Positions 14,319 to 55,555 of a stretch of 64,000 nt of DNA are shown here, in pieces (position 1 is the first letter of the stretch; the number at the start of each line of letters is the position of its first letter). The translations under genes and the position numbers were made by a program. The DNA comes from Escherichia coli. GTDB taxonomy: Bacteria; Pseudomonadota; Gammaproteobacteria; Enterobacterales; Enterobacteriaceae. The notes beneath the pieces are model-generated. The model saw nothing but the letters and a program-made list of their open reading frames with translations. It searched no databases and was not told where the DNA came from. The DNA lies in NCBI RefSeq assembly GCF_045037415.1, contig NZ_CP173438.1. One strand, written 5' to 3'.

Positions 14319-15034
14319 TGGGACAGCGCACGTGAACCTCTTTCGCGTGCGCTTTTGATCCACATCCGGCTGCCGTTGAGGGCAATAAAGGTCAGGATGA
14401 TGTACTCCAGAGACATGGCGTAAACGCCCTGAAGTGCAAAAATAACGACGCTAATCACGTTAATAATCACCCACAACAGCCAGTTTTCCACATACTTACG
14501 TGTCATCAGAATCATTGCCACGATAGATAACACCATCATGCATGAATCCCAGAACGGGAAAGCGTCCGGCTGTAGTTCAGGCATCGCAACCTGTAATCCT
14601 AATGCTTGCATGATCATGACTGCCACGCGGGTCAAAAATGCAAACACAGGATTGATAAATACCGTCATTAGACCAATCGAAACAACGCAAACCGCCAGCC
14701 AGCTTAGCGCCTTCGGCAATGGCAACCAGCGAATTTTCAACTCCGCCTCGTTCTGACTGGTTTGTCGCGACCACGCATACCAGCCGTAAATATTCGCGGC
14801 AAAGAAAAACACCTGTAATAACAGGCTGGCATACAGCTGAATCTGAAAGAAAATAATGCCAAACAAGGTGACGTTGATCAGGCCAAAGAAGTAGTTACTG
14901 ATCTTCTCCAGACTGGCAAGGCCAATACACAGCAACCCGGCGATCGTGCCTACCGCTTCGATCCATGAGAGATCATAACCGCCTGCCCCTATTGGTATAT
15001 GTACCAGGATATTCTGCACACTAAAAAAATCCAT
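14315..15034 (-). CDS. pnuC: nicotinamide riboside transporter
   Basis: 239 aa polytopic membrane protein downstream of nadA. Confidence 0.95.
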
Positions 15035-15071
15035 CGTTCCCCCAAAGCGTAATGTGACGCCTTATTATCAA

Positions 15072-16115
15072 TTATCCACGTAGTGTAGCCGCAAAATCCA
15101 GCATACGATTGAGCGGCACCAGCGCCCTCTCTCGCAGCCTTTCATCAACATAAACCTCGTGATTGCTTCCTTCCAGTTCTAATGCCTCTGCGATGGCCTG
15201 AAGGCCATTCATGGCCATCCACGGACAATGCGCGCAGCTGCGACAGGTTGCGCCCTCACCCGCGGTTGGTGCTTCCAGTAACTCTTTATCTGGCACCGCC
15301 TGCTGCATTTTGTAGAAAATGCCCCGATCGGTTGCCACGATAAGCCGCTGATGTTGCAATGTTTTCGCAGCAGCGATCAGTTGACTGGTGGAACCGACCG
15401 CATCCGCCATCTCTACAATAGCTTGCGGTGATTCTGGATGCACCAGTATGGCAGCATCCGGGTATTCTTCTTGCAAGCGGGTTAACGCCTGAGTCTTAAA
15501 CTCATCATGCACAATGCAGGCACCCTGCCAGCATAAAATGTCTGCGCCCGTCTGTTTTTGCACGTAACGCCCCAGATGTTTGTCAGGTGCCCAGATGATT
15601 TTTTCACCCAAACTATCCAGATGATCAATAAGTTCGACGGCAATGCTTGAAGTTACCACCCAATCTGCGCGCGCTTTTACCGCAGCAGAAGTGTTGGCGT
15701 AGACGACGACAGTACGATCGGGATGGGCATCGCAAAATGCGTTAAATTCTTCAACAGGGCAGCCGAGATCCAGTGAACATTCAGCCTGAAGTGTCGGCAT
15801 CAGAATTGTTTTTTCCGGACTGAGAATTTTGGCGGTTTCTCCCATAAATCTCACCCCAGCGACTAGCAACGTAGAAGCGGGATGCTTTGCACCGAAGCGC
15901 GCCATTTCCAGAGAATCAGAAATACAGCCACCGGTTTCTTCTGCCAGTTGTTGAATTTCGGGATCGGTATAGTAGTGGGCAACCATCACCGCATTACGTT
16001 CTTTTAGTAGACGTTTTATCTTCTCGCGGTAATTCGCTTTTTCATCAATGCTTAACGGCGTCGGCTTCGGGGGGAAAGGATAAATCGCCGTGTCTGGATC
16101 AAACATCACGCTCAT
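15072..16115 (-). CDS. nadA: quinolinate synthase
   Basis: 347 aa starting [18 protein letters not shown]. Confidence 0.97.
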
Positions 16116-16187
16116 CTTACCATCTCGTTCTACAGGCTTAACGTTAAAACCGACTTAAGCGTGATATTCGCTATTATCGGCGTAATT

Positions 16188-24668: not shown

Positions 24669-26237
24669 TTAGCGTGCCGGCTGAGTAGTCGTGGAAGACT
24701 GCTCAAAGTGATAGCGACCGGTTTTCAGGCTGCTTGGGCCGAGGCGTGCAAACTTGAACATTAAGAACAATTCTGCCACCAGGAACAGGGTATACAGGCC
24801 GCAAATCAGCACCATTGAGAAGATGAGATCGCCTGCGGTCAGTGACGAGTTCGCCACAGCTGTCGGCAGCACTTCACCGATAGCCCACGGTTGGCGGCCA
24901 TATTCAGCCACGAACCAGCCCGCTTCTACAGCAATCCACGGCAGCGGAATACCGTACAGCGCGGCGCGCAGCAGCCATTTTTTCTCGCCAATGCGGTTGC
25001 GGATGACACTCCAGAAAGAGAGCGCAATGATTGCCAGCAGCAGGAAGCCACACGCCACCATGATACGGAACGCGAAGTACAGCGGCGCTACACGCGGAAT
25101 GGAGTCTTTGGTTGCCTGTTGAATCTGAGCTTCAGTCGCATCAGCCACGTTTGGCGTATAGCGTTTCAGCAGCAGACCGTAACCGAGATCTTTCTTCATG
25201 CTATTGAACTGGTCACGAACGGCCTGGTCAGTAGAACCAGAACGCAGTTGTTCGAGCAGAGAGTACGCCTTCATCCCGTTACGAATGCGTTCTTCATGCT
25301 GCACCATCAGTTCTTTCAGACCGATAACTGGAGTATCCACGGAACGCGTTGCAATGATGCCCAGCGCGTAAGGGATCTGGATCGCAAATTTGTTCGTCTC
25401 CTCTTCCTGATCAGGAATGCCGAACAGAGTAAAGGCAGCAGGTGCAGGTTGCGTTTCCCACTCGGCTTCAATAGCAGCCAGTTTGGTTTTCTGCACGTCG
25501 CCCATTTCGTAGCCGGATTCATCACCCAGAACAATAACAGACAGAACGGCAGCCATACCGAAGCTGGCAGCGATAGCAAAGGAGCGTTTAGCGAAGGCGA
25601 AGTCACGACCTTTCAGCATATACCATGCGCTGATACCGAGGATGAACATCGCGCCAGTCACATAACCAGAAGCTACGGTGTGAACGAATTTCACCTGAGC
25701 AACCGGGTTAAGCACCAGCTCGGAGAAGCTCACCATCTCCATACGCATAGTTTCAAAGTTGAAATCGGACGCGATTGGGTTTTGCATCCAGCCGTTTGCA
25801 ACCAGAATCCACAGTGCGGACAGGTTTGAACCGAGCGCCACCAGCCAGGTGACACACATATGCTGAACTTTACCCAGACGATCCCAACCGAAGAAGAACA
25901 GACCTACAAAGGTGGATTCGAGGAAGAAGGCCATCAGACCTTCGATTGCCAGCGGCGCACCGAAGATATCCCCTACATAGTGGGAATAGTAAGACCAGTT
26001 AGTCCCGAACTGGAACTCCATGGTCAGACCGGTAGCCACACCCAGAGCAAAGTTGATACCAAACAACTTGCCCCAGAACTTGGTCATATCTTTATAAATC
26101 TGTTTGCCGGAAAGGACGTAGACCGTTTCCATAATGGCCAGCAGGAACGCCATACCGAGCGTCAGTGGCACAAAAAGGAAGTGGTACATCGCGGTCAAGG
26201 CAAACTGTAAGCGCGACAGTTCGACTATATCTAACAT
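24669..26237 (-). CDS. cydA: cytochrome bd-I oxidase subunit I
   Basis: 522 aa starting [19 protein letters not shown]. Confidence 0.97.
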
Positions 26238-26522
26238 CATGACTCCTTGCTCATCGCATGAAGACTCCGAGAGTGAACCCCGTTAGAAAGGGTCACACGC
26301 ATGCCCCAATACAAAATTATTTGCTCGCCTCTATCGTTGCCATTTCATCAAAAGAAGAAAAGACAATGATAAAAAAGTTACAAATATGTTAATGAATAAA
26401 CCAAATTTATCCCGTAATTATATTACGCTGCAAAATCCTTACAATAAACAGGTTTTTATTGAGCAAATTTGCATTTTTCGACAGTGATCAATTTATAGCG
26501 AAATTGTCACGATCCCACCAAT

Positions 26523-26536
26523 TTGATCTACAACAA
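26523..26536. promoter_or_regulatory. FNR-like half-palindrome in cydA upstream region
   Basis: TTGATCTACAACAA, partial match to TTGAT-N4-ATCAA, about 290 bp upstream of the cydA start. Confidence 0.4.
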
Positions 26537-26574
26537 TTTATCGTGTTTTGCAGATTTTTTTCAAGAATTAAAAA

Positions 26575-26588
26575 TTGATTTATATCAA
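26575..26588. promoter_or_regulatory. FNR binding site in cydA upstream region
   Basis: TTGATTTATATCAA, perfect TTGAT-N4-ATCAA, about 340 bp upstream of the cydA start. Confidence 0.6.
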
Positions 26589-27744
26589 AATCAATCAGAT
26601 ATGTTAACCGCTCGTAAATCATGAATCATTGATGGGTTTGTTGTTAATAAATTGTAGCAAAATAACACAGTAAAACTACCCACATGGAAATATATAGATA
26701 AAAAACCAGTATTTTATTTAACAGAACCGCCTTATCGACTTTTTATAATACTAGTTAGTTAGAGTAGCTACTTTGTTGCCATTTTACATAACATATTTTT
26801 ATCAACGTTAATTGATTGTTGTCTTTATGAGCAACGTACTGTAAATCCGTCACTTATTGTTTCATTGGTAATAATCACAAGAAGAAATAGATACCTTAGG
26901 TATAGTCAGATGGAACAAGGATTTTCAAAATAAATTTATATGGTATTAATATTTCCCGATCTGTATTCAATGATTCGCTCAAAGATTGAAAATCAAGAGA
27001 AATTGTTATAGCAGTGATACGAGACAACAAAACGGAATGATTGCCAGCCGTTAGAAAACACCGGACACTCTCGTGTAAAAAGCTACCCTGTCTATGGATA
27101 TAGCGATATCGACTCATCAAGCGTGGACTGAATGATATTCAGCTCCATATGGGCGGCAACCTGGAGGATAAACATGATTTCGCCGTTGGAATCAAGGTTG
27201 TTCTGCAATATCTACCAGACTGCTTCAATTTATCTGTTTTGGAAGTGCAATAATCTTAATTTAACTATTTGAAGATGATGATATTGTCAGATGCCAGAAA
27301 TTTAGTAATCTGGAGAACCGTGTCTATGATCACTAAATATTAAAGTAATAGTCGTCAGTAACACATCGAGTGATATAACGTATTGACACCTAATCATATA
27401 AAAACAGATCGTAATTAAGCAGCATAAGAATATGTCTTATTATCATTAAAATACATTCTATTTCCATCATCCTTAAGATAATAAAACAGTGAGTGATGGA
27501 TAATTTCACCCCAAAAAAAAGCAAGCATATAAAATTAAAAAACATGACTCCACTTTCATTTTTATGAAATGGCATCGTGAAGAGGCGCCAGCCAATTATA
27601 AAGATCTTGCTCCTCAAAAAATGAAACAACTCAGCCTGAGATAATATTTTTGACCGAAGTTAACATTAAAAATGGTTAATAGTTTGCGCCTCTCACACAG
27701 GTCCAGGCAACTGCGTAACAGGCAAATCAAATTTTCGTAAACAG

Positions 27745-27770
27745 TGGGCATCATCAGATGCCCACAAAAT
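27745..27770 (-). terminator. hairpin downstream of the TPR-protein gene
   Basis: perfect 9-bp stem GTGGGCATC-tgat-GATGCCCAC just 3' of the stop; weak T tract. Confidence 0.45.
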
Positions 27771-27779
27771 ACAGCTGAT

Positions 27780-28973
27780 TTACATTTTCGTCTTTACACG
27801 TGCAATAGCTTCTTCATAAGAAGGCTTATTTTTTTCCGTATACGCCAGTTGATAATGCTGCAATGCTTCAGCATTCTGGCCCGAGGTTTCATAAATTTTG
27901 GCAATGTTATAATAGGAGTTGGCGCGCGTTGTCGCCGCATTTACCCCACTCGCTAACGAGATCGCTTTACGATTTGCCCAAATTGCTTCCGCTATGTTGC
28001 CATTTTTCTGATACGCCAGACCCAGGTTACTAAATGCCTGTCCGTAATTGCCGTCTAATTCTGTTGCCTGTTGGAAGAGTTGAATGGCTTGCTCAAGTTG
28101 ACCGGTTTTATAAACAGCTTCACCTTCGCGATTATATTTTCTTGCCAGTTGAGTATCTCCACTGTTTTGCATCGCAGGCGAAGCCGGAGCTGAAGAGTCC
28201 GTCGCAGGCATTATCACAGTGGCTAAATCCCTGACGTCTAATGTGGTGCCGTTAAAATTGGCGCTGGTAACAGAGTTGATATCTTCAAACTCGCCGTTTG
28301 GATTGAGTTTAAACACGGTCCAGATGTTCCCTCGTTTTCCTGCAGGGACACTATAACTACGTACCAGGGAGCTCCCTACATAAACAAACACTTTTGCCTT
28401 ACTGGCAGAGAGATAATTACTGTTGGGCAGCCCTTTATTGCTATAGTCCTGCACGGCATAGATGTAACTTTCACCAAAATGCTTTTTGCTGATAGTGACA
28501 GTTTCTGGTCCATAGCTATCCGTATCATCAACATCCAGATTGGCATCAGTTCCCTCTTTACTATCAAAATAGATATGTCCGCCAGGGAAGATCAAATGCG
28601 AATCAAGATCAAAAGGCTTTTCGCCCCAGCTCAAAACTACACGCATGCCATCCAGATTCGTCATCACCGGACTGATAGCATAAGTCATGCCAGCGCACGG
28701 ACATTTGACCACCAGATTGGAATACCCCTCTTTTTTGACGATTAATAGAGCATCTTTATTATCAGCAAATGAAGTCCCCAAACTAATGCTGCCCGAAGTA
28801 TTTGTGATACCAGAAACAGATTGTGCACCATTGCGTTGCAGCGTCACCGATGCCCCTTCAATGCGTTTATCTTTCACTGTCGCACTTAAAATATCAATGC
28901 TTACATCGGCGGCATAAGCACCTGCATTCATGCCCAACAGCGCGAGAGCAACTGGCAAAACAATTTTCTTCAT
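27780..28973 (-). CDS. secreted protein with C-terminal TPR repeats (accessory; not in K-12 as I recall)
   Basis: 397-aa ORF; Sec signal peptide MKKIVLPVALALLGMNAGAYA; C-terminal TPR-like repeats; AGGA RBS; visibly lower GC than flanking core genes. Confidence 0.75.
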   Translation of the reverse strand: MKKIVLPVALALLGMNAGAYAADVSIDILSATVKDKRIEGASVTLQRNGAQSVSGITNTSGSISLGTSFADNKDALLIVKKEGYSNLVVKCPCAGMTYAISPVMTNLDGMRVVLSWGEKPFDLDSHLIFPGGHIYFDSKEGTDANLDVDDTDSYGPETVTISKKHFGESYIYAVQDYSNKGLPNSNYLSASKAKVFVYVGSSLVRSYSVPAGKRGNIWTVFKLNPNGEFEDINSVTSANFNGTTLDVRDLATVIMPATDSSAPASPAMQNSGDTQLARKYNREGEAVYKTGQLEQAIQLFQQATELDGNYGQAFSNLGLAYQKNGNIAEAIWANRKAISLASGVNAATTRANSYYNIAKIYETSGQNAEALQHYQLAYTEKNKPSYEEAIARVKTKM

Positions 28974-45193: not shown

Positions 45194-46477
45194 ATGGCTG
45201 ATACAAAAGCAAAACTCACCCTCAACGGGGACACAGCTGTTGAACTGGATGTGCTGAAAGGCACGCTGGGTCAAGATGTTATTGATATCCGTACTCTCGG
45301 TTCAAAAGGTGTGTTCACCTTTGACCCAGGCTTCACTTCAACCGCATCCTGCGAATCTAAAATTACTTTTATTGATGGTGATGAAGGTATTTTGCTGCAC
45401 CGCGGTTTCCCGATCGATCAGCTGGCGACCGATTCTAACTACCTGGAAGTTTGTTACATCCTGCTGAATGGTGAAAAACCGACTCAGGAACAGTATGACG
45501 AATTTAAAACTACGGTGACCCGTCATACCATGATCCACGAGCAGATTACCCGTCTGTTCCATGCTTTCCGTCGCGACTCGCATCCAATGGCAGTCATGTG
45601 TGGTATTACCGGCGCGCTGGCAGCGTTCTATCACGACTCGCTGGATGTTAACAATCCTCGTCATCGTGAAATTGCCGCGTTCCGCCTGCTGTCAAAAATG
45701 CCGACCATGGCCGCGATGTGTTACAAGTATTCCATTGGTCAGCCATTTGTTTACCCGCGCAACGATCTCTCCTACGCCGGTAACTTCCTGAATATGATGT
45801 TCTCCACACCGTGCGAACCGTATGAAGTTAATCCGATTCTGGAACGTGCTATGGACCGTATTCTGATCCTGCACGCTGACCATGAACAGAACGCCTCCAC
45901 CTCCACCGTGCGTACCGCTGGCTCTTCGGGTGCGAACCCGTTTGCCTGTATCGCAGCAGGTATTGCTTCACTGTGGGGACCTGCGCACGGTGGTGCTAAC
46001 GAAGCGGCGCTGAAAATGCTGGAAGAAATCAGCTCCGTTAAACACATTCCGGAATTTGTTCGTCGTGCGAAAGACAAAAATGATTCTTTCCGCCTGATGG
46101 GCTTCGGTCATCGCGTGTACAAAAACTACGACCCGCGCGCCACCGTAATGCGTGAAACCTGCCATGAAGTGCTGAAAGAGCTGGGCACCAAAGATGACCT
46201 GCTGGAAGTGGCTATGGAGCTGGAAAACATCGCGCTGAACGACCCGTACTTTATCGAGAAAAAACTGTACCCGAACGTCGATTTCTACTCTGGTATCATC
46301 CTGAAAGCGATGGGTATTCCGTCTTCTATGTTCACCGTGATCTTCGCTATGGCACGTACGGTTGGCTGGATCGCCCACTGGAGCGAAATGCACAGTGACG
46401 GTATGAAGATTGCCCGTCCGCGTCAGCTGTATACCGGCTACGCGCAGCGTGATTTTAAGTCGGATATTAAGAAGTAA
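45194..46477 (+). CDS. gltA: citrate synthase
   Basis: 427 aa starting [23 protein letters not shown]; divergent from sdhC across a 708-bp regulatory region. Confidence 0.98.
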
Positions 46478-46494
46478 AAATGACACCGACAAAA

Positions 46495-46519
46495 CCCTGC
46501 GTGGACACGCAGGGTTTTT
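46495..46519. terminator. shared hairpin terminator between convergent gltA and TRAP permease gene
   Basis: CCCTGCGT-ggac-ACGCAGGG followed by TTTTT on the plus strand and a shorter T-run on the minus strand. Confidence 0.7.
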
Positions 46520-46523
46520 AATT

Positions 46524-47834
46524 CTACACCAGCAGCAAAGATATTGCCGGAATATAGGTAATGACCAACAGAAGTAAAATAAGACTGATCAGTAATGGCA
46601 CCGCTTCACGCATAAATTGCCCGACAGAAACCTGTACGGTATTACATACCAGCAGCATCACCGTTCCGACAGGTGGTGATAACGTTCCTAACGATAAGTT
46701 GAGGATCATAATGATGCCAAAATGCACCGGATCAATGCCAAAATGAGCCACCACGGGTTTAAGTAATGGGACTAATATCAGCAGAATGGCACTACCTTCA
46801 AGGAACATGCCAAGCACCAGCAGCAATAGATTGATAATCAATAAAAAGACGTATTTATTATCGGTCAGAGAAGTTACAAACTCCGCAACCGTGATACCTG
46901 CCCGCTCAAGGGAAAATATCCAGCCCAGCGCGGCACTCGCCATAATGATTAACATGACCGATGCCGTGGAACGCGCCGTCTCAGAGAGTGCTGTAAATAC
47001 ATGGCTGATTTTCAGTTCGCGATAAATTACAAAACCAATAAACATTACCAATAATACTGCTACCGCTCCGGCTTCCGTTGGCGTAAAGATATTTGCCCGA
47101 ATACCACCGATAACCGCAACAATTAAGAACAGTGCTGGCCAGGCCTGCACCAGCGCCACTGACACTTCTTTCGGTTTTGGCCAGTGTTCGCTGGAAGGTT
47201 TTAAACCGCGACGAATAGCCACCAACCATACGGTAACGATCAACATGGCGGAGCACAGCAGACCTGGCAGGATCCCGGCCATAAACATGGAGCCGATGGA
47301 GACATCCGCCACCAGTCCGTAAAGGATCAGTGCAATACCCGGTGGAATAATTGGTGTAATCAGCGAACCACTTGCCGTTATCGCCGCCGCAAAGCCACGG
47401 GAATAACCTTTCTGTTCCATTTCCGGCACCATCATGCGCGATAACATTGCGGCATCCGCCAGATTTGAGGCACTGACACCGCCCATCATGGTACTGACCA
47501 GAATATTAGCCCCACCCAGGCCACCGCGCATTCTGCCAATCAACACGTTGGCAATTTGCAAAATACGCGCGGCAATACCGGTATAGCTCATTAACGTGCC
47601 TAATAAGATAAAAAACGGAATAGCTAACAGCGAAGGGGTTTGCGTCGTGGCAATCAAACGCTGAATTGCCACCATTAACGGCACATTTGAATAGCAAAGG
47701 AAGTAGGTCAGAATGCCGCAAAACATCGCCAGCCATACCGGCATATTGATAAATAAACAGACGAACATAAGCGGAATGATCATCAGCCAGTTATCCAGCC
47801 AGCTTCCCGCCAGTAATTCACTCAATGCTGTCAT
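46524..47834 (-). CDS. TRAP transporter large permease subunit (DctM family)
   Basis: 436-aa polytopic membrane protein; 1-nt overlap with upstream DctQ-like gene. Confidence 0.85.
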   Translation of the reverse strand: MTALSELLAGSWLDNWLMIIPLMFVCLFINMPVWLAMFCGILTYFLCYSNVPLMVAIQRLIATTQTPSLLAIPFFILLGTLMSYTGIAARILQIANVLIGRMRGGLGGANILVSTMMGGVSASNLADAAMLSRMMVPEMEQKGYSRGFAAAITASGSLITPIIPPGIALILYGLVADVSIGSMFMAGILPGLLCSAMLIVTVWLVAIRRGLKPSSEHWPKPKEVSVALVQAWPALFLIVAVIGGIRANIFTPTEAGAVAVLLVMFIGFVIYRELKISHVFTALSETARSTASVMLIIMASAALGWIFSLERAGITVAEFVTSLTDNKYVFLLIINLLLLVLGMFLEGSAILLILVPLLKPVVAHFGIDPVHFGIIMILNLSLGTLSPPVGTVMLLVCNTVQVSVGQFMREAVPLLISLILLLLVITYIPAISLLLV

Positions 47835-48295
47835 TATTCACCTTCTTTGCGTGGCGTTTTCTTGATCAGTTGTAAGGCAGTAAAACAGGCGACACCGATA
47901 GCGCCAACCGTGACGGCAATATCGATCCAAAACCAGGATATTTTTAATATTTGCGTGGTTTTAAAGGCTGTCCCGGCAGCTAATTTCCATGCTGACCAGG
48001 CCATGACCACCAGCAAAATAATAGACATCAGAGAGACTAAAAACGCTAATATACGTTGCCCGCGTGAAGTAAGTGCATCGGCTAAAAATGGAATCGATAA
48101 ATGGGTATTATCTCGTTCAGCAACAACCGCACCAAACATGACTACCCAAATCATTAATAAACCGGAAACCTCTTCTGTCCACTGTAATGGCATATGAAAA
48201 CAGTAACGCATTATTACCGCAGCAATGGTCATGATTACCAATATAAAGAGCGTTAATACCGCAGCAACTTCAATCATTTTCCCTAAAAGACGCAT
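47834..48295 (-). CDS. TRAP transporter small permease subunit (DctQ family)
   Basis: about 153 aa with 4 predicted TM helices; start set at MRLLGKM (GAGG RBS) rather than ORF-track start at 48331. Confidence 0.75.
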   Translation of the reverse strand: MRLLGKMIEVAAVLTLFILVIMTIAAVIMRYCFHMPLQWTEEVSGLLMIWVVMFGAVVAERDNTHLSIPFLADALTSRGQRILAFLVSLMSIILLVVMAWSAWKLAAGTAFKTTQILKISWFWIDIAVTVGAIGVACFTALQLIKKTPRKEGE

Positions 48296-48354
48296 AAACA
48301 CCTCTGCTCTTAACGGTCGGTGCCGAAACACCGACCAGTCCTTATGCCATGAAG

Positions 48355-49323
48355 TTATTTCAGCTGTTGCTGAATAGTGTCATACAAACCAGGGGTCCAT
48401 TCCGGGAATTGTTGATAGACTTTTAAGGCTTTTTCTTTGAAAGGGGCGACGTCAGGATAGATGATTTCCACGCCCTGCTCCTGCATGGTTTTCAACATTG
48501 TCGCATCCTGCTCAGTGGTAATTTTCTGGCTATATAAACCAGCTTCATACGCTGTCTGGTGAATAATATCTAACTGCGCAGGTGTCAGGGTACTGAAAAA
48601 CGCTTCGCCACCCAACCATAATGATGTATTGGTCAGATAGTTCACCATTGACAGATATTTCGCCTGCTCATGCAGCTTTTGCCCATAGAGAACAGAAACC
48701 GGGTTTTCCACACCATCGATCATCCCCTGAGTCAGCGCCGGATAAACATCTCCCAGCGGCATTGGTGTTGGGGTTGCGCCCATCGCTTCGATAGCTTTAA
48801 TCTGCATGACGTTATTCGGCACGCGGATCTTCATCCCTTTCAAGTCTTCAGGTGTACGAATCGGTTTTTTAGCAATGATCTGCCTGGTACCGTACAGATA
48901 GTTGCTCATGACAATATGCACACCTTTTTCCCGTAGTTTCTGTTCTTTTTGTTTAAACCAGTCACTGGCATAAATCGCAAACAGTTTCTGCGGATCTTCG
49001 GTTAAATAAGGCCCAAACAATATTCCCAAGTCTGCATCGTAGTCAGTTAAAAATCCTACATCACTGATGGTGATAATATTCATCCCCATCAACGCTTGTT
49101 CAGTAATATCTTGTTTAGAACCTAACTGTGAACTTGGGTAAAGTTCGAAAACAATATCTCCATTGCTTTTTTTCTTCACAAGTTCTGCCCAGTGCTTCAC
49201 TACTGTATCCGCTGGCTCGCCGGGGTTACTTTCATAGGCGATTTTGATAGTTACCGGTGCGGCATTCAGCATCGGACTAAATAAAGCTAAAAGAAATAAA
49301 AGTGGTGTCAGTAATTTTTTCAT
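48355..49323 (-). CDS. TRAP transporter periplasmic solute-binding protein (DctP family)
   Basis: 322 aa; signal peptide MKKLLTPLLFLLALFSPMLNA; DctP-like length and organisation. Confidence 0.85.
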   Translation of the reverse strand: MKKLLTPLLFLLALFSPMLNAAPVTIKIAYESNPGEPADTVVKHWAELVKKKSNGDIVFELYPSSQLGSKQDITEQALMGMNIITISDVGFLTDYDADLGILFGPYLTEDPQKLFAIYASDWFKQKEQKLREKGVHIVMSNYLYGTRQIIAKKPIRTPEDLKGMKIRVPNNVMQIKAIEAMGATPTPMPLGDVYPALTQGMIDGVENPVSVLYGQKLHEQAKYLSMVNYLTNTSLWLGGEAFFSTLTPAQLDIIHQTAYEAGLYSQKITTEQDATMLKTMQEQGVEIIYPDVAPFKEKALKVYQQFPEWTPGLYDTIQQQLK

Positions 49324-49350
49324 TATTATTACCTGTAAGAGCTTTATCGA

Positions 49351-50547
49351 TTAACGGGGATCTGCCCGACAGACTGCACTTTTGCTGTAATCAAATGCTT
49401 TATACGTTAAAACAAACTCCTGATGTTCCAGTCGTTCTGCGGCACAATATTGACCGTTGGCGACATGTTCAATCACCTGCATAATATCGTCTGCAATATC
49501 GTCGAGCGTTGCGCCTTCGCTAATTACACGACCGGCATTAACGTCCATATCGTCAGATAAATGCTCCCACGTCTGCGGGTTATTACACACTTTAATAATA
49601 GGAGCGATCACTGAACCAATAACTGAACCGCGACCTGTGGTAAATAACACCATATGACAGCCAGAGGCGATAAGTTCCAGTGCTTCTGAGGAATCGTTAA
49701 TATTCGGATACCCAAAACGAGGTTCACCATCAGGCACCACGTCCATCAACCAAAGCCCAGGAAAGGGCGTTTGTTGCGTCGGCAAAATAACGCCAGCAAT
49801 CAGCGCATCGCCCGACTTGGTATAAGCCCCAAGGGATTTTTCTTCCTGAGTGGTTAAGCCGCCTTCAGCATTACCGTTAGAAAAACTCCCCAGCCCCATC
49901 AAACTGTAATAACGTTCGGCTTTTGTCATTGCCACTTCGATGGCATCACGTGCCTGCGAACTAGCCGCGCGCGACATCATATGCTGCTCACAACCAAGCA
50001 ACTCACCGCTTTCTTCAAAAATACAGGTAGCCCCTTTCTCCAGCAGTTGGTCAAAGGCACGTCCTACTGCCGGGTTACCCGTGATACCACTGGTGCCATC
50101 GGAGCCACCGCAGATAGTACCAACCACCAGGTCGCTCCAGTTCAGGATACAACGCGGTGTATCCGCAAGCTGTTCCAGCATTTCAGCGACCAACTGCTTA
50201 CCCAGAGTAATGGTGTTGGTCGTGCCTTTATTTTCCTGAATGACCAGCGTATGGCACGGTCGCCCACTTTCTCGTACTTCTTGCTCCAGCCGACGGCGAT
50301 CGAAATTCTCGCACCCCAGCGAAATAATCAGTACACCACCTACGTTGCTATGAGTCGCCAGATTTTTCACCAGCCGATAGCCATAATCGCTGGGATAACA
50401 ACCTGAAAAACCAAAATACTGCACGTCGTGACAAGGAAATCCTTCGGCAATCTTTTTAGCGACATGGCTGGCACACTCCACCATAAAGATTACCTGCACA
50501 GTATTACGAATACCTGGTCGACCATTTTGCCGTACATAACCTTCCAT
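49351..50547 (-). CDS. UxaA/GarD-family sugar-acid dehydratase, large catalytic subunit
   Basis: 398 aa resembling the C-terminal catalytic domain of altronate/galactarate dehydratases; start overlaps stop of upstream SAF gene. Confidence 0.75.
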   Translation of the reverse strand: MEGYVRQNGRPGIRNTVQVIFMVECASHVAKKIAEGFPCHDVQYFGFSGCYPSDYGYRLVKNLATHSNVGGVLIISLGCENFDRRRLEQEVRESGRPCHTLVIQENKGTTNTITLGKQLVAEMLEQLADTPRCILNWSDLVVGTICGGSDGTSGITGNPAVGRAFDQLLEKGATCIFEESGELLGCEQHMMSRAASSQARDAIEVAMTKAERYYSLMGLGSFSNGNAEGGLTTQEEKSLGAYTKSGDALIAGVILPTQQTPFPGLWLMDVVPDGEPRFGYPNINDSSEALELIASGCHMVLFTTGRGSVIGSVIAPIIKVCNNPQTWEHLSDDMDVNAGRVISEGATLDDIADDIMQVIEHVANGQYCAAERLEHQEFVLTYKAFDYSKSAVCRADPR

Positions 50548-50858
50548 TATGCTTTTTCCTCTGACTGATAGCCGGCATCATCATGATGAAAAATGGCGAT
50601 GGCATTGCTGGCAAGATTATGGGAATGCACATGTTCACCCATGGCAATATCGCGAGTGGCGTGTCCGATAATGGCGCCGTATTTCAGAATCGAATCACCA
50701 TTGTTCAGCGCTTCGCAGGCCAGTTTGTGCCCCAGGGTAACGGAACTACAGGCCACCATTTCCCCCTCATCCCACCAGACAATATCGCCACTGGCGATGT
50801 CATTCAGCGCGACTACACAGTTATCTTTGGCATGTAGCTTTAACGCACGTTTGCGCAT
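50547..50858 (-). CDS. UxaA-family dehydratase small subunit (SAF domain)
   Basis: about 103 aa from MRKRALKLHAKDNCVVAL with perfect GGAGG RBS; ORF-track start at 50963 judged an over-extension. Confidence 0.7.
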   Translation of the reverse strand: MRKRALKLHAKDNCVVALNDIASGDIVWWDEGEMVACSSVTLGHKLACEALNNGDSILKYGAIIGHATRDIAMGEHVHSHNLASNAIAIFHHDDAGYQSEEKA

Positions 50859-50872
50859 AATTCCTCCGTACA

Positions 50873-51628
50873 TCAGAAGCCGATCAATGCGCCGCCATCC
50901 ACCACCAGCACCTGACCACTGACAAACGCCGCTGCGTCTGAAGCCAGATAAACCGCAGCCCAACCGATATCCTCCGGCTTGCCGAATTTTTTCATCGGGG
51001 TACGACCCAGGATTTTGTTACGGCGTTCGTCATCACCTTCAATGGCCTTACGCAACATTGGTGTATCGATCCAGCCTGGCGCAATACCATTGACGCGAAT
51101 CCCATGAACGGCAAGCTCCGTGGTCATACCGCGAATCATGCCGAGATAGGCTGACTTCGCTGCGCTGTAGCCAGTAACCAGAGGCTGCCCAAGAAATGAG
51201 GTCATCGATGCAGTAAAAAGCACACAGCCTTTACCGCGTTGTTTCATATGCGGCACCAGCGCTTTGGTTAACGCAAATGCGCCGACTACGTGAACGTCGA
51301 GTACTGACTCAAAATCACTGACGCTCATCTCTTCAATCGGTTTTTTGCAGTGATTGCCTGCGTTATTGACCAGGATATCGATAGCCCCGTGTTCGCTAAT
51401 AAGCACATCAACTTTTTCCTGCGCGGCTGCGGTATCCCCGACATCCATTTGTATCCAACTGGCCTGCGACCCCAATGTTCCGGCGGTCGCTTGCGCCAGC
51501 TCGCCGTTCAGGTCAGCAATAATGACCTTCGCCCCGCTGACTATCATGCATTTCGCCATTGCCAGCCCCAGCCCACTGGCTGCACCGGTGATCAACGCGG
51601 TTTTGTTATGTAAAGAAAAAGCATTCAT
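50873..51628 (-). CDS. short-chain dehydrogenase/reductase, KduD/IdnO-like
   Basis: 251 aa; TGAASGLG cofactor motif and YSAAK catalytic motif. Confidence 0.85.
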   Translation of the reverse strand: MNAFSLHNKTALITGAASGLGLAMAKCMIVSGAKVIIADLNGELAQATAGTLGSQASWIQMDVGDTAAAQEKVDVLISEHGAIDILVNNAGNHCKKPIEEMSVSDFESVLDVHVVGAFALTKALVPHMKQRGKGCVLFTASMTSFLGQPLVTGYSAAKSAYLGMIRGMTTELAVHGIRVNGIAPGWIDTPMLRKAIEGDDERRNKILGRTPMKKFGKPEDIGWAAVYLASDAAAFVSGQVLVVDGGALIGF

Positions 51629-51639
51629 GGTGTCGCTCC

Positions 51640-52653
51640 TTAAAGGTCAATGAGGATTTTGGTATACGCGCCGGGATCACTTGCCCAGTCGCTAAAAGCG
51701 TGATCAGCCTGTTCCAGCGGGTAGTGAGCACTCACCAGATTGCTGACCGGATAACGCCCGGACTCCATCAATGCCAGCACGGCACGAAAATCCGCCACGG
51801 TGGCATTGCGCGAACCACGGATATCCAGTTCTTTCATCAGGAACTGCGCACTCTGATAACTCACTGGCTGTTTGGCGTAACCGACATAAACCACACGACC
51901 GCTAAACGCCACCAACCCTGTAGCCTGTTCAATGGTTTGTTGATTACCCACCGCTTCAATCACCACTTCCGGGCCGCGACCGTCATTTAACAGCACCAGT
52001 TCTGCCGCCACGTCACATTGCTGCGAATTAAGAAAACGTTGCGCACCGCATTCCAGGGCAATGTTCCGCTTGCGATCATCAATATCGATAGCAATTACGC
52101 GCGCCCCCATGGCGGATGCCGCGGCGATAGCGCCAAGGCCAATTACCCCACAACCGATAACTGCGACCCATTCACCCACATTAATTTGCGCACGTCTGGC
52201 CGCATGTAGTCCCACGGCCAGCGGTTCTACCAGCGCTAACTCATCAACACTTAAGGCATTACAGACAATGACTTTATGTGCAGGCATCGTCAGTTGTTGC
52301 GCCATCCCCCCCTGACGTTGCACACCAAGAGTTTGGTTGTTTTTACAGGCGTTAGGACGACCGCTCAGACAGGAGCTGCACACGCCACACTCAGTGCAAG
52401 GCAGAACGACCACCCGGTCACCTGGCTTGATCGCCCCTGCCATATCGCCAGTTGCCAGCACCGTGCCGCCAATTTCATGCCCCGGAATACAGGGATAATT
52501 AACCAGCGGATTTAGTCCCCGCCAGGTATTGAGGTCAGAACCACACAGTCCGACACGCTCAACATTGATTAGCACTTCTCCTTTACCGCAGACAGGTTCG
52601 GGGATATCAACAAATCGCGCCTGACTTCCCTGCTCAATGGTTAATGCCTTCAT
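51640..52653 (-). CDS. Zn-dependent medium-chain polyol/sugar-acid dehydrogenase
   Basis: 337 aa; GHE catalytic-Zn motif, structural-Zn Cys cluster, GxGxxG Rossmann motif. Confidence 0.85.
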   Translation of the reverse strand: MKALTIEQGSQARFVDIPEPVCGKGEVLINVERVGLCGSDLNTWRGLNPLVNYPCIPGHEIGGTVLATGDMAGAIKPGDRVVVLPCTECGVCSSCLSGRPNACKNNQTLGVQRQGGMAQQLTMPAHKVIVCNALSVDELALVEPLAVGLHAARRAQINVGEWVAVIGCGVIGLGAIAAASAMGARVIAIDIDDRKRNIALECGAQRFLNSQQCDVAAELVLLNDGRGPEVVIEAVGNQQTIEQATGLVAFSGRVVYVGYAKQPVSYQSAQFLMKELDIRGSRNATVADFRAVLALMESGRYPVSNLVSAHYPLEQADHAFSDWASDPGAYTKILIDL

Positions 52654-52665
52654 TCATTGCTCTCC

Positions 52666-53352
52666 TTACATTACGCCGAAGGTTTCAAAGGCCTGTACCG
52701 TGCTCATGCCATCACTGATGGCTTTGCGCACTTCACTTTCAGTTGCCACTTTTTCCAGGGCCTGGGTAATAACTTCTTTCTCAACAACCTGGGGAATAAT
52801 CAGTAATCCGTCACGATCACCAAACACGATATCGCCCGGATTCACTCGCACGCCGTGAAATTCAATAGGTACGCCGAAGTCGATGACCTTGCCGCGCGGA
52901 CCTTGATCCTGTGCGTAAGTGCCATGACAAAAAGTGGGAAATTTCAATTCAAGAATTTCAGCAGAGTCACGGGCGTAACCATCGAGTACCGCACCTGCTG
53001 CTTTCAGATGCATGGCACGGGTAGACATCAACCCGCCCCACAAGGCATAGCGCAGAGAGCTGCCCGTAGTGATGTAAACATCGTTCTCTTTGAGGGCATC
53101 CAGCGCTTCAAACATGATGCCAAACGGTTTTTCGCCAATCGCCGTCTTACCCGACGTCGATTTGGTTTCGTAAACGTCCGACTCCAGCACCGGCATTGCC
53201 CGGCCTGCCACCACCGTATTCACATCCAGCGGCTTGATTGCCGGAGAAACAAACTGGTGCATATAGCCCAGCGTGTCGAGAATATCGCCAACCACGGCGG
53301 TAAATAGCCGGGTTTTCATCAAAGCAAAAAGTTCGTTATCACTCTTCCACAT
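52666..53352 (-). CDS. RraA-family protein, putative class II 4-hydroxy-2-oxoacid aldolase
   Basis: about 228 aa from MWKSDNEL (ATG with AGGA RBS); RraA-like fold inferred by recall; first gene of the operon. Confidence 0.6.
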   Translation of the reverse strand: MWKSDNELFALMKTRLFTAVVGDILDTLGYMHQFVSPAIKPLDVNTVVAGRAMPVLESDVYETKSTSGKTAIGEKPFGIMFEALDALKENDVYITTGSSLRYALWGGLMSTRAMHLKAAGAVLDGYARDSAEILELKFPTFCHGTYAQDQGPRGKVIDFGVPIEFHGVRVNPGDIVFGDRDGLLIIPQVVEKEVITQALEKVATESEVRKAISDGMSTVQAFETFGVM

Positions 53353-53361
53353 TATTTTCGT

Positions 53362-53390
53362 CCTGTAAGCCTGTTTAACAGGTTTACAGG
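53362..53390. promoter_or_regulatory. nested inverted-repeat candidate operator
   Basis: CCTGTAAGCCTGTTTAACAGGTTTACAGG: two CCTGT arms then two ACAGG arms; inner tGTttaACa fits GntR-type GT-Nx-AC; 10-38 bp upstream of the first operon gene. Confidence 0.5.
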
Positions 53391-53615
53391 GTAAGGAGAA
53401 AAAGCGCACAATACTGCGAAGGGCGTCACGAAAAAGTTGTGTATTTACTATTTCTTCGCCACTCTTTCACACAATATGTCTTTGATTCGCACTGCATGGC
53501 GGGCGCACAGGCGCAGTAGTCTATTGATAATCAAGGGTTCTGGAGGAAAATATGAAGGATACAGTCCCGGTATTCTGGATTTCACCGACCAGGAAAAAGT
53601 ACAACAGGAGTAAAA

Positions 53616-54329
53616 ATGAGTGAGAGTGCGTTATTGACCAGCGTAACGTTATCGTCACAGGTCAAAAATCATATTCTTAATCTGATCGCCGAACAAAAAT
53701 TGACACCGGGGATGCCAGTTCCCAGTGAAGTTCAGCTGATTCAGAAATTGGGTGTCAGTCGGGGTATTGTGCGTGAGGCCTATCGTTCACTTGCCGCCCT
53801 GGGGATTCTGGAAACGCACAGCGGTAAAGTGCCACGAATCAAAAAATTTGATGATGAAGTGCTGCGCGTGGTGTTTGGATTTGCCCTGGCGACCGAACAA
53901 GTGACAACAGAGCAAATTCTTCAAGTACGCCGCTGGCTGGAGTTGGGCGTTGTGGAAGCTGCTGCCCGTAATGGCGAAGAGGAAGATTTTGCTAACCTAC
54001 GGGCTGAAATGGCAAAAATCCGCGAACAGTTCAATGATGTTGAAAGCTTTATCACCCATGATATCCGCTTCCATCAGTTACTTGCCGTTGCCTCAAAAAA
54101 TCCGCTTTTTATGATGTTATTGCAGGCATTACATCAGCAGTTGCGGCAATCCATCCAGGAGGGTTTAAACGCCCAAAGCGATCAGAAAGAGTATGGCAAT
54201 CACATCATCACACTACACCAGAAAATCTGCGATGCTGTGTGTGCCAGGGATGTCGAAACGGCGACTCAAGCCATGAAATCACACTTCGACAGCCCGGTCA
54301 GTGCACTGATCAATAATTCCTCGTCATAA
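53616..54329 (+). CDS. GntR-family (FadR/FCD subfamily) transcriptional regulator
   Basis: 237 aa; N-terminal HTH (KLGVSRGIVREAYRSL), C-terminal all-helical FCD-like domain; divergent from the catabolic operon. Confidence 0.85.
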   Translation: MSESALLTSVTLSSQVKNHILNLIAEQKLTPGMPVPSEVQLIQKLGVSRGIVREAYRSLAALGILETHSGKVPRIKKFDDEVLRVVFGFALATEQVTTEQILQVRRWLELGVVEAAARNGEEEDFANLRAEMAKIREQFNDVESFITHDIRFHQLLAVASKNPLFMMLLQALHQQLRQSIQEGLNAQSDQKEYGNHIITLHQKICDAVCARDVETATQAMKSHFDSPVSALINNSSS

Positions 54330-54508
54330 GACTTATCTCAGTTCAATCGTTTACTCTTCCCTCTTTTACAAACGAGAGGGAGACAACGGTACTTAATACG
54401 CCCTTTAGCCAAAATCTGTCTTTTTCTTGATTACCGCTATTTTTTCGTTGAGGCGCATTCTTTATGCTGTATCGATACACCAAAGGTAAGTTAAACAGGG
54501 AGTGACGG

Positions 54509-55555
54509 ATGCCAGTGCTACAGTGGGGAATGTTATGTGTTCTGTCACTTCTCCTTTCTATTGGCTTCCTCGCTTTACATCTCCCGGCGGCACTCCTGCT
54601 TGGCCCGATGATCGCGGGGATCATCTTCAGTATGCACGGAGTCACTCTGCAACTTCCCCGCTCCGCTTTTCTCGCTGCCCAAGCCATTCTTGGCTGCATG
54701 ATTGCACAAAACCTCACTGGTTCGATTCTCACCACGCTGGCCGTCAACTGGCCGATCGTGCTTGCGATTTTACTGGTGACGCTGCTTTCCAGCGCCATCG
54801 TGGGTTGGTTATTGGTGCGCTATAGCTCACTGCCTGGGAATACCGGGGCCTGGGGTTCTTCTCCTGGCGGCGCGGCGGCAATGGTCGCAATGGCGCAAGA
54901 TTACGGCGCAGATATTCGCCTGGTGGCGTTTATGCAATATCTGCGAGTGCTGTTCGTCGCAGGAGCCGCTGTTCTGGTCACCCGCATGATGCTGGGCGAT
55001 AACGCTGAAGCGGTTAACCAGCAGATCGTCTGGTTCCCGCCAGTGAGCATTAATCTCCTGCTTACGATTTTGCTCGCGGTCGTTGCCGGTACGGCGGGAT
55101 GCTTGCTACGTCTTCCTTCCGGCACGATGCTCATCCCGATGCTGGCGGGCGCAGTGCTCCAGTCTGGTCAGCTCATCACGATTGAACTCCCGGAATGGCT
55201 GCTGGCGATGGCATATATGGCAATTGGCTGGCGGATTGGTCTTGGTTTCGATAAGCAAATATTACTGCGGGCATTGCGCCCGCTACCGCAAATCCTGCTG
55301 TCGATTTTTGCTCTGCTGGCTATTTGTGCGGGCATGGCGTGGGGGCTGACCCGGTTTATGCATATTGATTTTATGACCGCCTACCTCGCCACCAGCCCCG
55401 GCGGGCTTGATACCGTGGCGGTCATCGCCGCAGGGAGCAATGCCGATATGGCGCTCATCATTGCGATGCAAACCCTGCGCCTGTTCAGTATTTTGCTGAC
55501 GGGGCCTGCCATCGCACGGTTTATTTCAACCTATGCGCCGAAGCGTTCGGCCTAG
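54509..55555 (+). CDS. abrB: AbrB-family membrane protein
   Basis: 348-aa polytopic membrane protein; position next to nei as in K-12. Confidence 0.9.

Follow-up and report, generated by a model that had tools for sequence, protein, structure and literature searches.

An accessory island between gltA and abrB

The window, the whole 64-kb stretch of DNA analyzed here, is Escherichia coli chromosome that carries the mod and gal genes, tol-pal, cyd, suc and sdh, followed by gltA. Between gltA (45194–46477, plus strand) and abrB (54509–55555, plus strand) sits an 8-kb accessory island in which a zinc-dependent medium-chain dehydrogenase (ADH, 337 aa, 51640–52653) and a classical short-chain dehydrogenase/reductase (SDR, 251 aa, 50873–51628) are encoded side by side on the minus strand. 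An earlier note on this DNA had singled out the adjacent pair, and both open reading frames (ORFs) were confirmed at these limits with their motifs intact. RefSeq describes the two proteins as 'zinc-binding alcohol dehydrogenase family protein' (WP_000646085.1) and 'SDR family NAD(P)-dependent oxidoreductase' (WP_000991076.1). On comparative grounds, we consider it probable that they form a redox-neutral C5-epimerization couple within a self-contained operon for L-hexonate catabolism.

The pair belongs to a run of eight minus-strand genes whose successive gaps of 12, 11, 14, −1, 27, 59 and −1 nt point to one operon. The first gene (52666–53352) encodes an RraA-family protein of 228 aa and is followed by the ADH and SDR genes, which are 11 nt apart. 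Next come the small subunit (103 aa, 50547–50858; SAF domain, TIGR03248 positions 2–79) and the large subunit (398 aa, 49351–50547; TIGR03248 positions 180–490, PDB 6U7L GarD) of a split UxaA/GarD-family dehydratase, the stop codon of the former overlapping the start codon of the latter (TAATG). The operon ends with a TRAP transport system comprising a DctP-family solute-binding protein (SBP; 48355–49323, NCBIfam TRAP_S1), the small permease DctQ (47834–48295) and the large permease DctM (46524–47834), the two permeases being identified by RefSeq annotation and NCBIfam. The island encodes neither a kinase nor an aldolase of the 2-keto-3-deoxy-6-phosphogluconate (KDPG) type.

A GntR/FadR-family regulator (53616–54329, plus strand; RefSeq annotation and NCBIfam) is transcribed divergently. 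The divergent regulatory region contains a near-perfect palindrome of 14 + 14 nt (53362–53390), located 10–38 nt upstream of the RraA start codon, with arms CCTGTAAGCCTGTT and AACAGGTTTACAGG that are 93% complementary and separated by a 1-nt spacer (A). It is a candidate operator for the GntR/FadR protein. Scans for promoters and terminators returned signals no better than those in shuffled sequence.

Motifs and closest relatives of the ADH and SDR

The ADH combines the Pfam domains ADH_N and ADH_zinc_N with the motifs GLCGSD (at residue 35), GHE (58), a structural-zinc CxxCxxCx7C (89), GCGVIG (167) and VIAID (186), all at positions that are invariant across 20 homologs. Its zinc ligands, four-cysteine site and GxGxxG place it among the zinc-dependent, polyol-dehydrogenase-like medium-chain dehydrogenases/reductases, and the acidic residue closing strand β2 predicts NAD as the cofactor. 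The SDR carries the full set of classical SDR elements, namely TGAASGLG (14), VIIAD (35), NNAG (88), Ser141 and YSAAK (154; Y154xxxK158), and VIIAD likewise predicts NAD. Both enzymes look catalytically competent, and the NAD-type acidic residues present in the two proteins fit a redox-neutral couple.

None of the ADH, SDR, dehydratase and RraA proteins reached the cut-off of an NCBIfam equivalog. For the ADH, the library cannot decide the question, as it holds no LgoD equivalog and E. coli LgoD itself passes none of its models. The closest solved relatives of the ADH in the PDB are generic polyol dehydrogenases. Its identity to E. coli LgoD (YjjN), 35% over 313 residues, falls short of a close relationship, and its scores of 141.3 bits against the IdnD equivalog NF007375 (cut-off of 469) and 89 bits against PDB 6DKH set it apart from IdnD. 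ADH homologs at 46–58% identity were found in Proteobacteria, Acidobacteria, Planctomycetes, Verrucomicrobia and Bacteroidetes, including one (46%) in a Bacteroides finegoldii cluster that comprises an aldo-keto reductase (AKR), a lactonase, FucP and the ADH. The ADH is thus related in sequence to L-hexonate 5-dehydrogenases of the LgnH and BVU_0222 type, the members compared being defined by their gene clusters and not being the characterized proteins themselves.

The closest solved relatives of the SDR are FabG and SDRs resembling gluconate 5-dehydrogenase. The earlier note had called the protein KduD/IdnO-like, a description that holds only loosely: scores against the KduD models (194.5 and 186.9 bits; cut-offs of 369 and 339) and the gluconate 5-dehydrogenase (IdnO) models (205.1 and 190.7 bits; cut-offs of 369 and 408) span 187–205 bits and lie well below the range of 339–408 at which membership is called. 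An assignment as 2-keto-3-deoxy-L-fuconate (L-KDF) 4-dehydrogenase (FucF) was also considered and rejected: identity is 33–38% to cluster-defined orthologs of that enzyme, which share 38–59% among themselves, and 28–38% to SDRs of the L-KDF 4-dehydrogenase type, compared with 44–73% within the orthogroup of the island SDR. The Herbaspirillum huttiense L-KDF dehydrogenase structure (PDB 8XWK) lies outside the 60 best PDB matches of the SDR.

Homology to an lgn-type pair

Plasmid 1 of Paracoccus denitrificans PD1222 carries a locus with an IclR regulator, an ABC transporter, an altronate-dehydratase-family protein, a 2-keto-3-deoxygalactonate (KDGal) kinase, a 2-keto-3-deoxy-6-phosphogalactonate (KDPGal) aldolase, a zinc ADH and an SDR, the last two encoded by overlapping genes. 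The island ADH is 49% identical to the PD1222 ADH and the island SDR is 47% identical to the PD1222 SDR over 251 residues. In content and order the locus corresponds to lgnE-F-G-H-I of Paracoccus laeviglucosivorans 43P. In that strain, LgnH and LgnI are reported to epimerize L-gluconate at C5 via 5-keto-L-gluconate, after which LgnE dehydrates D-idonate (PMC12632266 and PMC5969746).

The lgn operon (LgnE dehydratase, LgnF kinase and LgnG aldolase) resembles the island in having an adjacent zinc ADH and SDR that feed a UxaA-family dehydratase. The two systems differ in most other respects. The dehydratase of the PD1222 locus is only 32% identical to that of the island, which is split; an ABC transporter and an IclR-type regulator take the place of the TRAP system and GntR-type regulator; and the kinase and KDPGal aldolase are replaced in the island by the RraA-like protein. 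The PD1222 SDR has GRR, which suggests NADP, whereas the island SDR with VIIAD looks NAD specific. Finally, the lgn substrate is L-gluconate, whereas the island SBP points to a galacto-configured substrate.

Other known systems share the chemistry with different enzymes. The E. coli L-galactonate pathway (LgoD, UxaB, UxaA, KdgK and Eda) and its TRAP-linked version in Brucella and Lampropedia follow the same logic from L-galactonate through D-tagaturonate and D-altronate to KDG (2-keto-3-deoxy-D-gluconate). In E. coli, however, the reductase UxaB belongs to the mannitol-dehydrogenase family, whereas that of the island would be an SDR; UxaA is fused and 30% identical to the island enzyme; and the island has an aldolase-type gene and no kinase. 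The island ADH belongs to the family found in AKR-lactonase-FucP-ADH clusters such as Phocaeicola vulgatus BVU_0219–0222, in which BVU_0222 is an L-galactonate dehydrogenase according to PMC12632266. In Luteolibacter sp. LG18, LguD, LguC and LguB have been shown experimentally to convert L-galactonate to D-tagaturonate, D-altronate and KDG, the reaction sequence proposed here for the island. Both the P. vulgatus and the LG18 (LguA–E) pathways start at the free sugar and end through KDG kinase and KDPG aldolase, whereas the island would import the acid and has no sugar dehydrogenase or lactonase. The earlier note had drawn its analogies from the IdnD/IdnO and LgoD/UxaB routes. The oxidation–reduction logic of those analogies stands, but neither IdnD/IdnO (far below the cut-offs) nor LgoD (35%) is the nearest relative; the closest precedents are the LgnH/LgnI pair and the BVU_0222 family.

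Genomic contexts of the ADH family

To place the pair in context, 80 genome loci anchored on ADH homologs were searched with the island proteins by tblastn; neighboring ORFs, predicted with a GC3-weighted caller, were clustered and recurrent families annotated. Three recurrent contexts were found. In the first, the ADH directly follows an L-fucono-1,5-lactonase-like amidohydrolase or an AKR, often together with FucP, FucU and a GH29-like protein; the annotated B. finegoldii locus (LacI, AKR, amidohydrolase, fucP and ADH) has a layout like that of BVU_0219–0222. In the second, found in Brucella/Ochrobactrum and Lampropedia, the ADH accompanies a UxaB-like tagaturonate reductase, a fused UxaA and a TRAP system, with ADH and DctP proteins 50–52% and 65–69% identical, respectively, to those of the island. 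In the third, the ADH lies beside IolO-like or UxaE epimerases. In each context, the partner is predicted to use the 5-keto acid expected from C5 oxidation of L-galactonate or L-gluconate.

In a neighbor-joining tree, the ADH homologs formed one coherent family with the contexts interleaved. The lactonase and tagaturonate-converting neighbors also occur in loci that have no dehydratase, and many family members occur as the ADH alone with a TRAP system (L003, L007 and L013). From these contexts and its sequence relationships, we propose that the ADH is an L-hexonate 5-dehydrogenase that uses NAD+ to oxidize L-galactonate and/or L-fuconate.

Orthologs of the SDR (44–97% identity) were present in 19 of the 80 loci. 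In 18 of these 19, the SDR gene directly adjoins the ADH gene, and in the remaining locus it is one gene away, which argues that the neighborhood is not due to chance. Loci with both genes often also carry RraA orthologs and either the split dehydratase or an acid-sugar dehydratase of the enolase superfamily. Two loci (L061 and L086) contain an SDR ortholog as well as an L-KDF 4-dehydrogenase ortholog, and one locus from an alphaproteobacterial metagenome-assembled genome (L047) contains an SDR ortholog as well as a UxaB-like gene. Homology to the SDR that follows an LgnH-type ADH, combined with the conserved adjacency, identifies the island SDR as a candidate LgnI-type C5 reductase, and we propose that it is an NADH-dependent 5-keto acid reductase yielding a D-configured aldonate.

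The L047 locus also encodes an LldD-type L-lactate dehydrogenase (15017–16174) four genes from the ADH–SDR pair, which hints weakly that some lineages use a 6-deoxy substrate that yields lactate.

The split dehydratase and the RraA-family protein

The dehydratase is a member of the UxaA/GarD superfamily by its N-terminal SAF domain, its GD_AH_second and GD_AH_C domains and its conserved cysteines. Joined end to end, the two subunits are 30% identical to E. coli UxaA, 28% to GarD and 50–64% to class-A orthologs; identities to E. coli UxaA, GarD and the fused UxaA of Brucella-type loci lie between 28% and 35%. The division into small and large subunits is kept in most orthologs across several classes. 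Members of the superfamily have four conserved cysteines (PMC6336799), three of which are invariant in the large subunit (C25, C79 and C146). The loop bearing the fourth is deleted: about 15 residues are missing near residues ~50–60 of the large subunit, which removes the 'GC' cysteine loop of UxaA, GarD and their fused relatives. The split subfamily has a conserved cysteine of its own in 'GC[YF]P'.

Orthologs at 58% identity in Sphingomonas and Deinococcus occur in clusters with an AKR, a lactonase, RhaM, an L-KDF dehydrogenase and a fumarylacetoacetate hydrolase (FAH) family protein and with no ADH. These clusters correspond to the non-phosphorylative L-fucose route described by the Watanabe laboratory, which employs a UxaA-type L-fuconate dehydratase. 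They share the dehydratase with the island but have no ADH, island-type SDR or RraA, and their own SDR is an ortholog of L-KDF dehydrogenase, the Sphingomonas protein scoring 294 bits with 8XWK.

The RraA protein gave below-cut-off matches to the NCBIfam RraA-family model and to models of HMG/CHA aldolases (HMG, 4-hydroxy-4-methyl-2-oxoglutarate; CHA, 4-carboxy-4-hydroxy-2-oxoadipate), and falls in the family of PDB 3NOJ. Its segment GLMSTRAMHLKAAGAVLDGYARDSAE at residue 107 conforms to the G-x20-R-D-x2-E/D motif of HMG/CHA aldolases with the Arg-Asp pair, and the G-x20-RD-x2-E form is conserved in proteobacterial orthologs. This wording of the motif reportedly goes back to Mazurkewich et al. 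in 2014. Catalytic and metal-related roles have been assigned to Arg123 and Asp124 in HMG/CHA aldolase (PMC5065237). Because the motif is present, and because the island has no counterpart of the kinase and KDPG-type aldolase that the PD1222 lgn-type locus carries, the RraA protein is probably a class II pyruvate aldolase for a 2-keto-3-deoxy acid.

The transporter and the likely substrate

The island SBP matches PDB 4OVT at 68% identity and 4O8M at about 45%. The 4OVT sequence is in turn 97–98% identical to DctP of the Brucella/Ochrobactrum loci that contain the ADH, UxaB-like and UxaA genes. We take 4OVT to be Oant_3902 with bound L-fuconate, and 4O8M presumably binds L-galactonate. The likely substrate of the island is L-galactonate and/or L-fuconate. 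A TRAP system with dual specificity for L-fuconate and L-galactonate is reported in PMC5507952.

Economy favors L-galactonate, whose inversion at C5 to D-altronate is known chemistry. What speaks for L-fuconate is the presence of an aldolase-type protein without a kinase, given that phosphorylation at C6 is impossible for a 6-deoxy product.

Proposed pathway and alternatives

In the pathway that we propose, the TRAP system would import L-galactonate and/or its 6-deoxy analog L-fuconate. The ADH would oxidize C5 with NAD+ to give D-tagaturonate or 6-deoxy-D-tagaturonate, and the SDR would re-reduce C5 with NADH from the opposite face to give D-altronate or 6-deoxy-D-altronate. Removal of water by the split UxaA-family dehydratase would lead to KDG or its 6-deoxy form, from which the RraA protein, acting as a metal-dependent pyruvate aldolase, would release pyruvate and either D-glyceraldehyde or lactaldehyde with no need for a kinase. 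The divergent GntR/FadR regulator would control the operon. The sequence data establish which genes are present, that their catalytic motifs are intact, how the operon is laid out, and the conservation, homology and contexts of the pair; which substrate is used, which carbon is attacked, in what order the enzymes act and what RraA does we infer from comparison. The proposal of the earlier note that an L-aldonate is oxidized and re-reduced with inversion ahead of UxaA-family dehydration is supported independently by the ADH contexts, the homology to the PD1222 pair and the 4OVT-type SBP.

A narrower version of this pathway, which we regard as speculative, is a kinase-free route dedicated to host-derived L-fuconate, in which the ADH–SDR pair would invert C5, the split UxaA would act on 6-deoxy-D-altronate and RraA would serve as a new 2-keto-3-deoxy-aldonate aldolase that releases lactaldehyde.

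Several points weigh against epimerization before dehydration or against individual steps of the pathway. The PD1222 genes were taken as orthologs of 43P lgnH and lgnI from gene order and content and not from sequence comparison. The dehydratase orthologs of the Sphingomonas and Deinococcus clusters must, to judge from their neighbors, dehydrate an L-aldonate directly, and the dehydratase family as such would then need no epimerization. This argument is tempered by the promiscuity of UxaA-family enzymes, which accept several of the acids that share the same C2–C4 configuration, namely D-altronate, L-galactonate, L-fuconate and D-arabinonate (PMC6336799). The aldolase motif is absent from the RraA orthologs of Bacteroidetes and Verrucomicrobia, and the RraA family is functionally diverse, one member being a dehydratase/decarboxylase (PMC8563752). 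A role in L-galactonate utilization would be partly redundant in E. coli, which already has LgoD, UxaB and UxaA, and for L-fuconate direct dehydration followed by an aldolase would be simpler.

The foremost alternative places dehydration first: the split UxaA would act directly on L-fuconate or L-galactonate, and the ADH and SDR would work downstream on the 2-keto-3-deoxy acid or on an aldehyde released by RraA, such as lactaldehyde. Besides the 58% identical large-subunit orthologs in the ADH-free clusters, which speak for this order and against ours, MetaCyc L-fucose degradation II gives altronate hydrolase as an alternative dehydratase and a dehydratase (Cj0483) is predicted in the fuc locus of Campylobacter jejuni. 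We nevertheless judge dehydration first to be unlikely. The island SDR falls outside the L-KDF dehydrogenase orthologs, and the coexistence of the two SDR types in L061 and L086 separates them further; in loci lacking a dehydratase, the ADH family adjoins lactonases and enzymes that convert tagaturonate; and the pair is homologous to the LgnH/LgnI-type pair, which acts ahead of dehydration.

The ADH and SDR might instead be parallel entry enzymes that do not act in sequence, for example with the ADH serving L-galactonate in concert with the host UxaB and the SDR serving another keto or hydroxy acid. The many family members with the ADH alone beside a TRAP system and the presence of a UxaB-like gene along with the SDR ortholog in L047 would suit such an arrangement. 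It is rendered improbable by the SDR orthogroup, which in the loci examined was always accompanied by the ADH and is adjacent to it in 18 of 19, and by the tight linkage of the two genes, 11 nt apart here and overlapping in PD1222.

Two further explanations have very little in their favor. HpsO and HpsP are an SDR and a zinc ADH. A SuyAB-like sulfolactate sulfo-lyase whose ADH and SDR would racemize a C3 sulfonate (2,3-dihydroxypropane-1-sulfonate or sulfolactate) in the manner of HpsO/HpsP is brought to mind by the split enzyme, since PMC6336799 describes no heteromeric member of the UxaA/GarD superfamily other than SuyAB, and by the loss of one of the four conserved cysteines; it is highly improbable given that none of the 120 best dehydratase homologs is named a sulfo-lyase, three cysteines stay invariant, the SBP is closest to 4OVT with its source locus of L-galactonate-type genes, the ADH and UxaA orthologs lie in L-fucose/L-galactose-type sugar clusters and the island has neither a sulfite exporter nor HpsN. 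An L-idonate route of the IdnD/IdnO type to D-gluconate, suggested by the analogy in the earlier note and by the sub-threshold matches of the SDR to gluconate 5-dehydrogenase models, can be dismissed with similar confidence on the score of the ADH against the IdnD model (141 bits versus a cut-off of 469; 89 bits for PDB 6DKH), the presence downstream of a UxaA-family dehydratase instead of gluconate kinase or Edd, and the SBP, which belongs to a group with its nearest members encoded in L-galactonate-type loci.

If the epimerization pathway is correct, about 12% of complete E. coli genomes, many of them O25b:H4-ST131, possess a second sugar-acid pathway that is self-contained, relies on enzymes non-orthologous to those of the K-12 L-galactonate route and draws on a high-affinity TRAP importer. 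It would also give an RraA-family protein its first sugar-acid aldolase role and extend the LgnH/LgnI-type epimerization couple to Enterobacteria. If L-fuconate is the substrate, the ST131 lineage and its relatives would gain a nutrient that K-12-type E. coli cannot use. Four genes hitherto named only by family would acquire testable functions for annotation. The pathway type is already known and the enzyme set is uncharacterized; no established idea is overturned.

Distribution of the island

In K-12, the slot between gltA and abrB holds the ybgOPQD fimbrial operon, which the island replaces (window 46500–54400 compared with K-12). A nucleotide search detected the ADH–SDR segment in 660 of 5426 complete E. 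coli genomes (~12%), with at least 99% identity in 651 of the 660 carriers and every copy on the chromosome. Named carriers include O25b:H4-ST131 strains, and the segment was also found in E. albertii and E. whittamii. No earlier study of the island was found in the literature, including by search with the island protein accessions; an ST131 genome paper has a sole mention, of a 'unique altronate hydrolase'.

A second ADH allele (protein P0006, 75% identical) is labeled E. coli in public records and is represented by 45 member sequences on 48 contigs. Since the nucleotide search would have missed this allele, other lineages may harbor a diverged form of the island. An ISApl1 (IS30-like) element (L095, 3852–6120) interrupts the large dehydratase subunit in the urine isolate FXCREC145, whose island is otherwise identical. 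Entomohabitans (L011) and Sodalis (L012) keep the regulator, RraA, ADH, SDR and split UxaA but have no intact TRAP system; in Entomohabitans the only remnant of the transporter is a DctP fragment of 135 residues.

Genomic region 21 of the extraintestinal pathogenic E. coli (ExPEC) strain BEN2908 was considered as a possible occurrence of the same island and rejected. It is an unrelated TRAP-linked sugar-acid island of ExPEC strains that lies between ygiQ and ftsP and encodes a zinc ADH 55% identical to YjjN along with UxuB-like and AllD-like proteins, the UxuB-like one being a dehydrogenase (PMC12928451).

Elsewhere in the window, a stretch of low G+C content (~26240–28970; G+C of 0.365 in 26001–28000) between mngB and cydA comprises an accessory tetratricopeptide-repeat gene and about 1.5 kb in which the matching record has no annotated gene.

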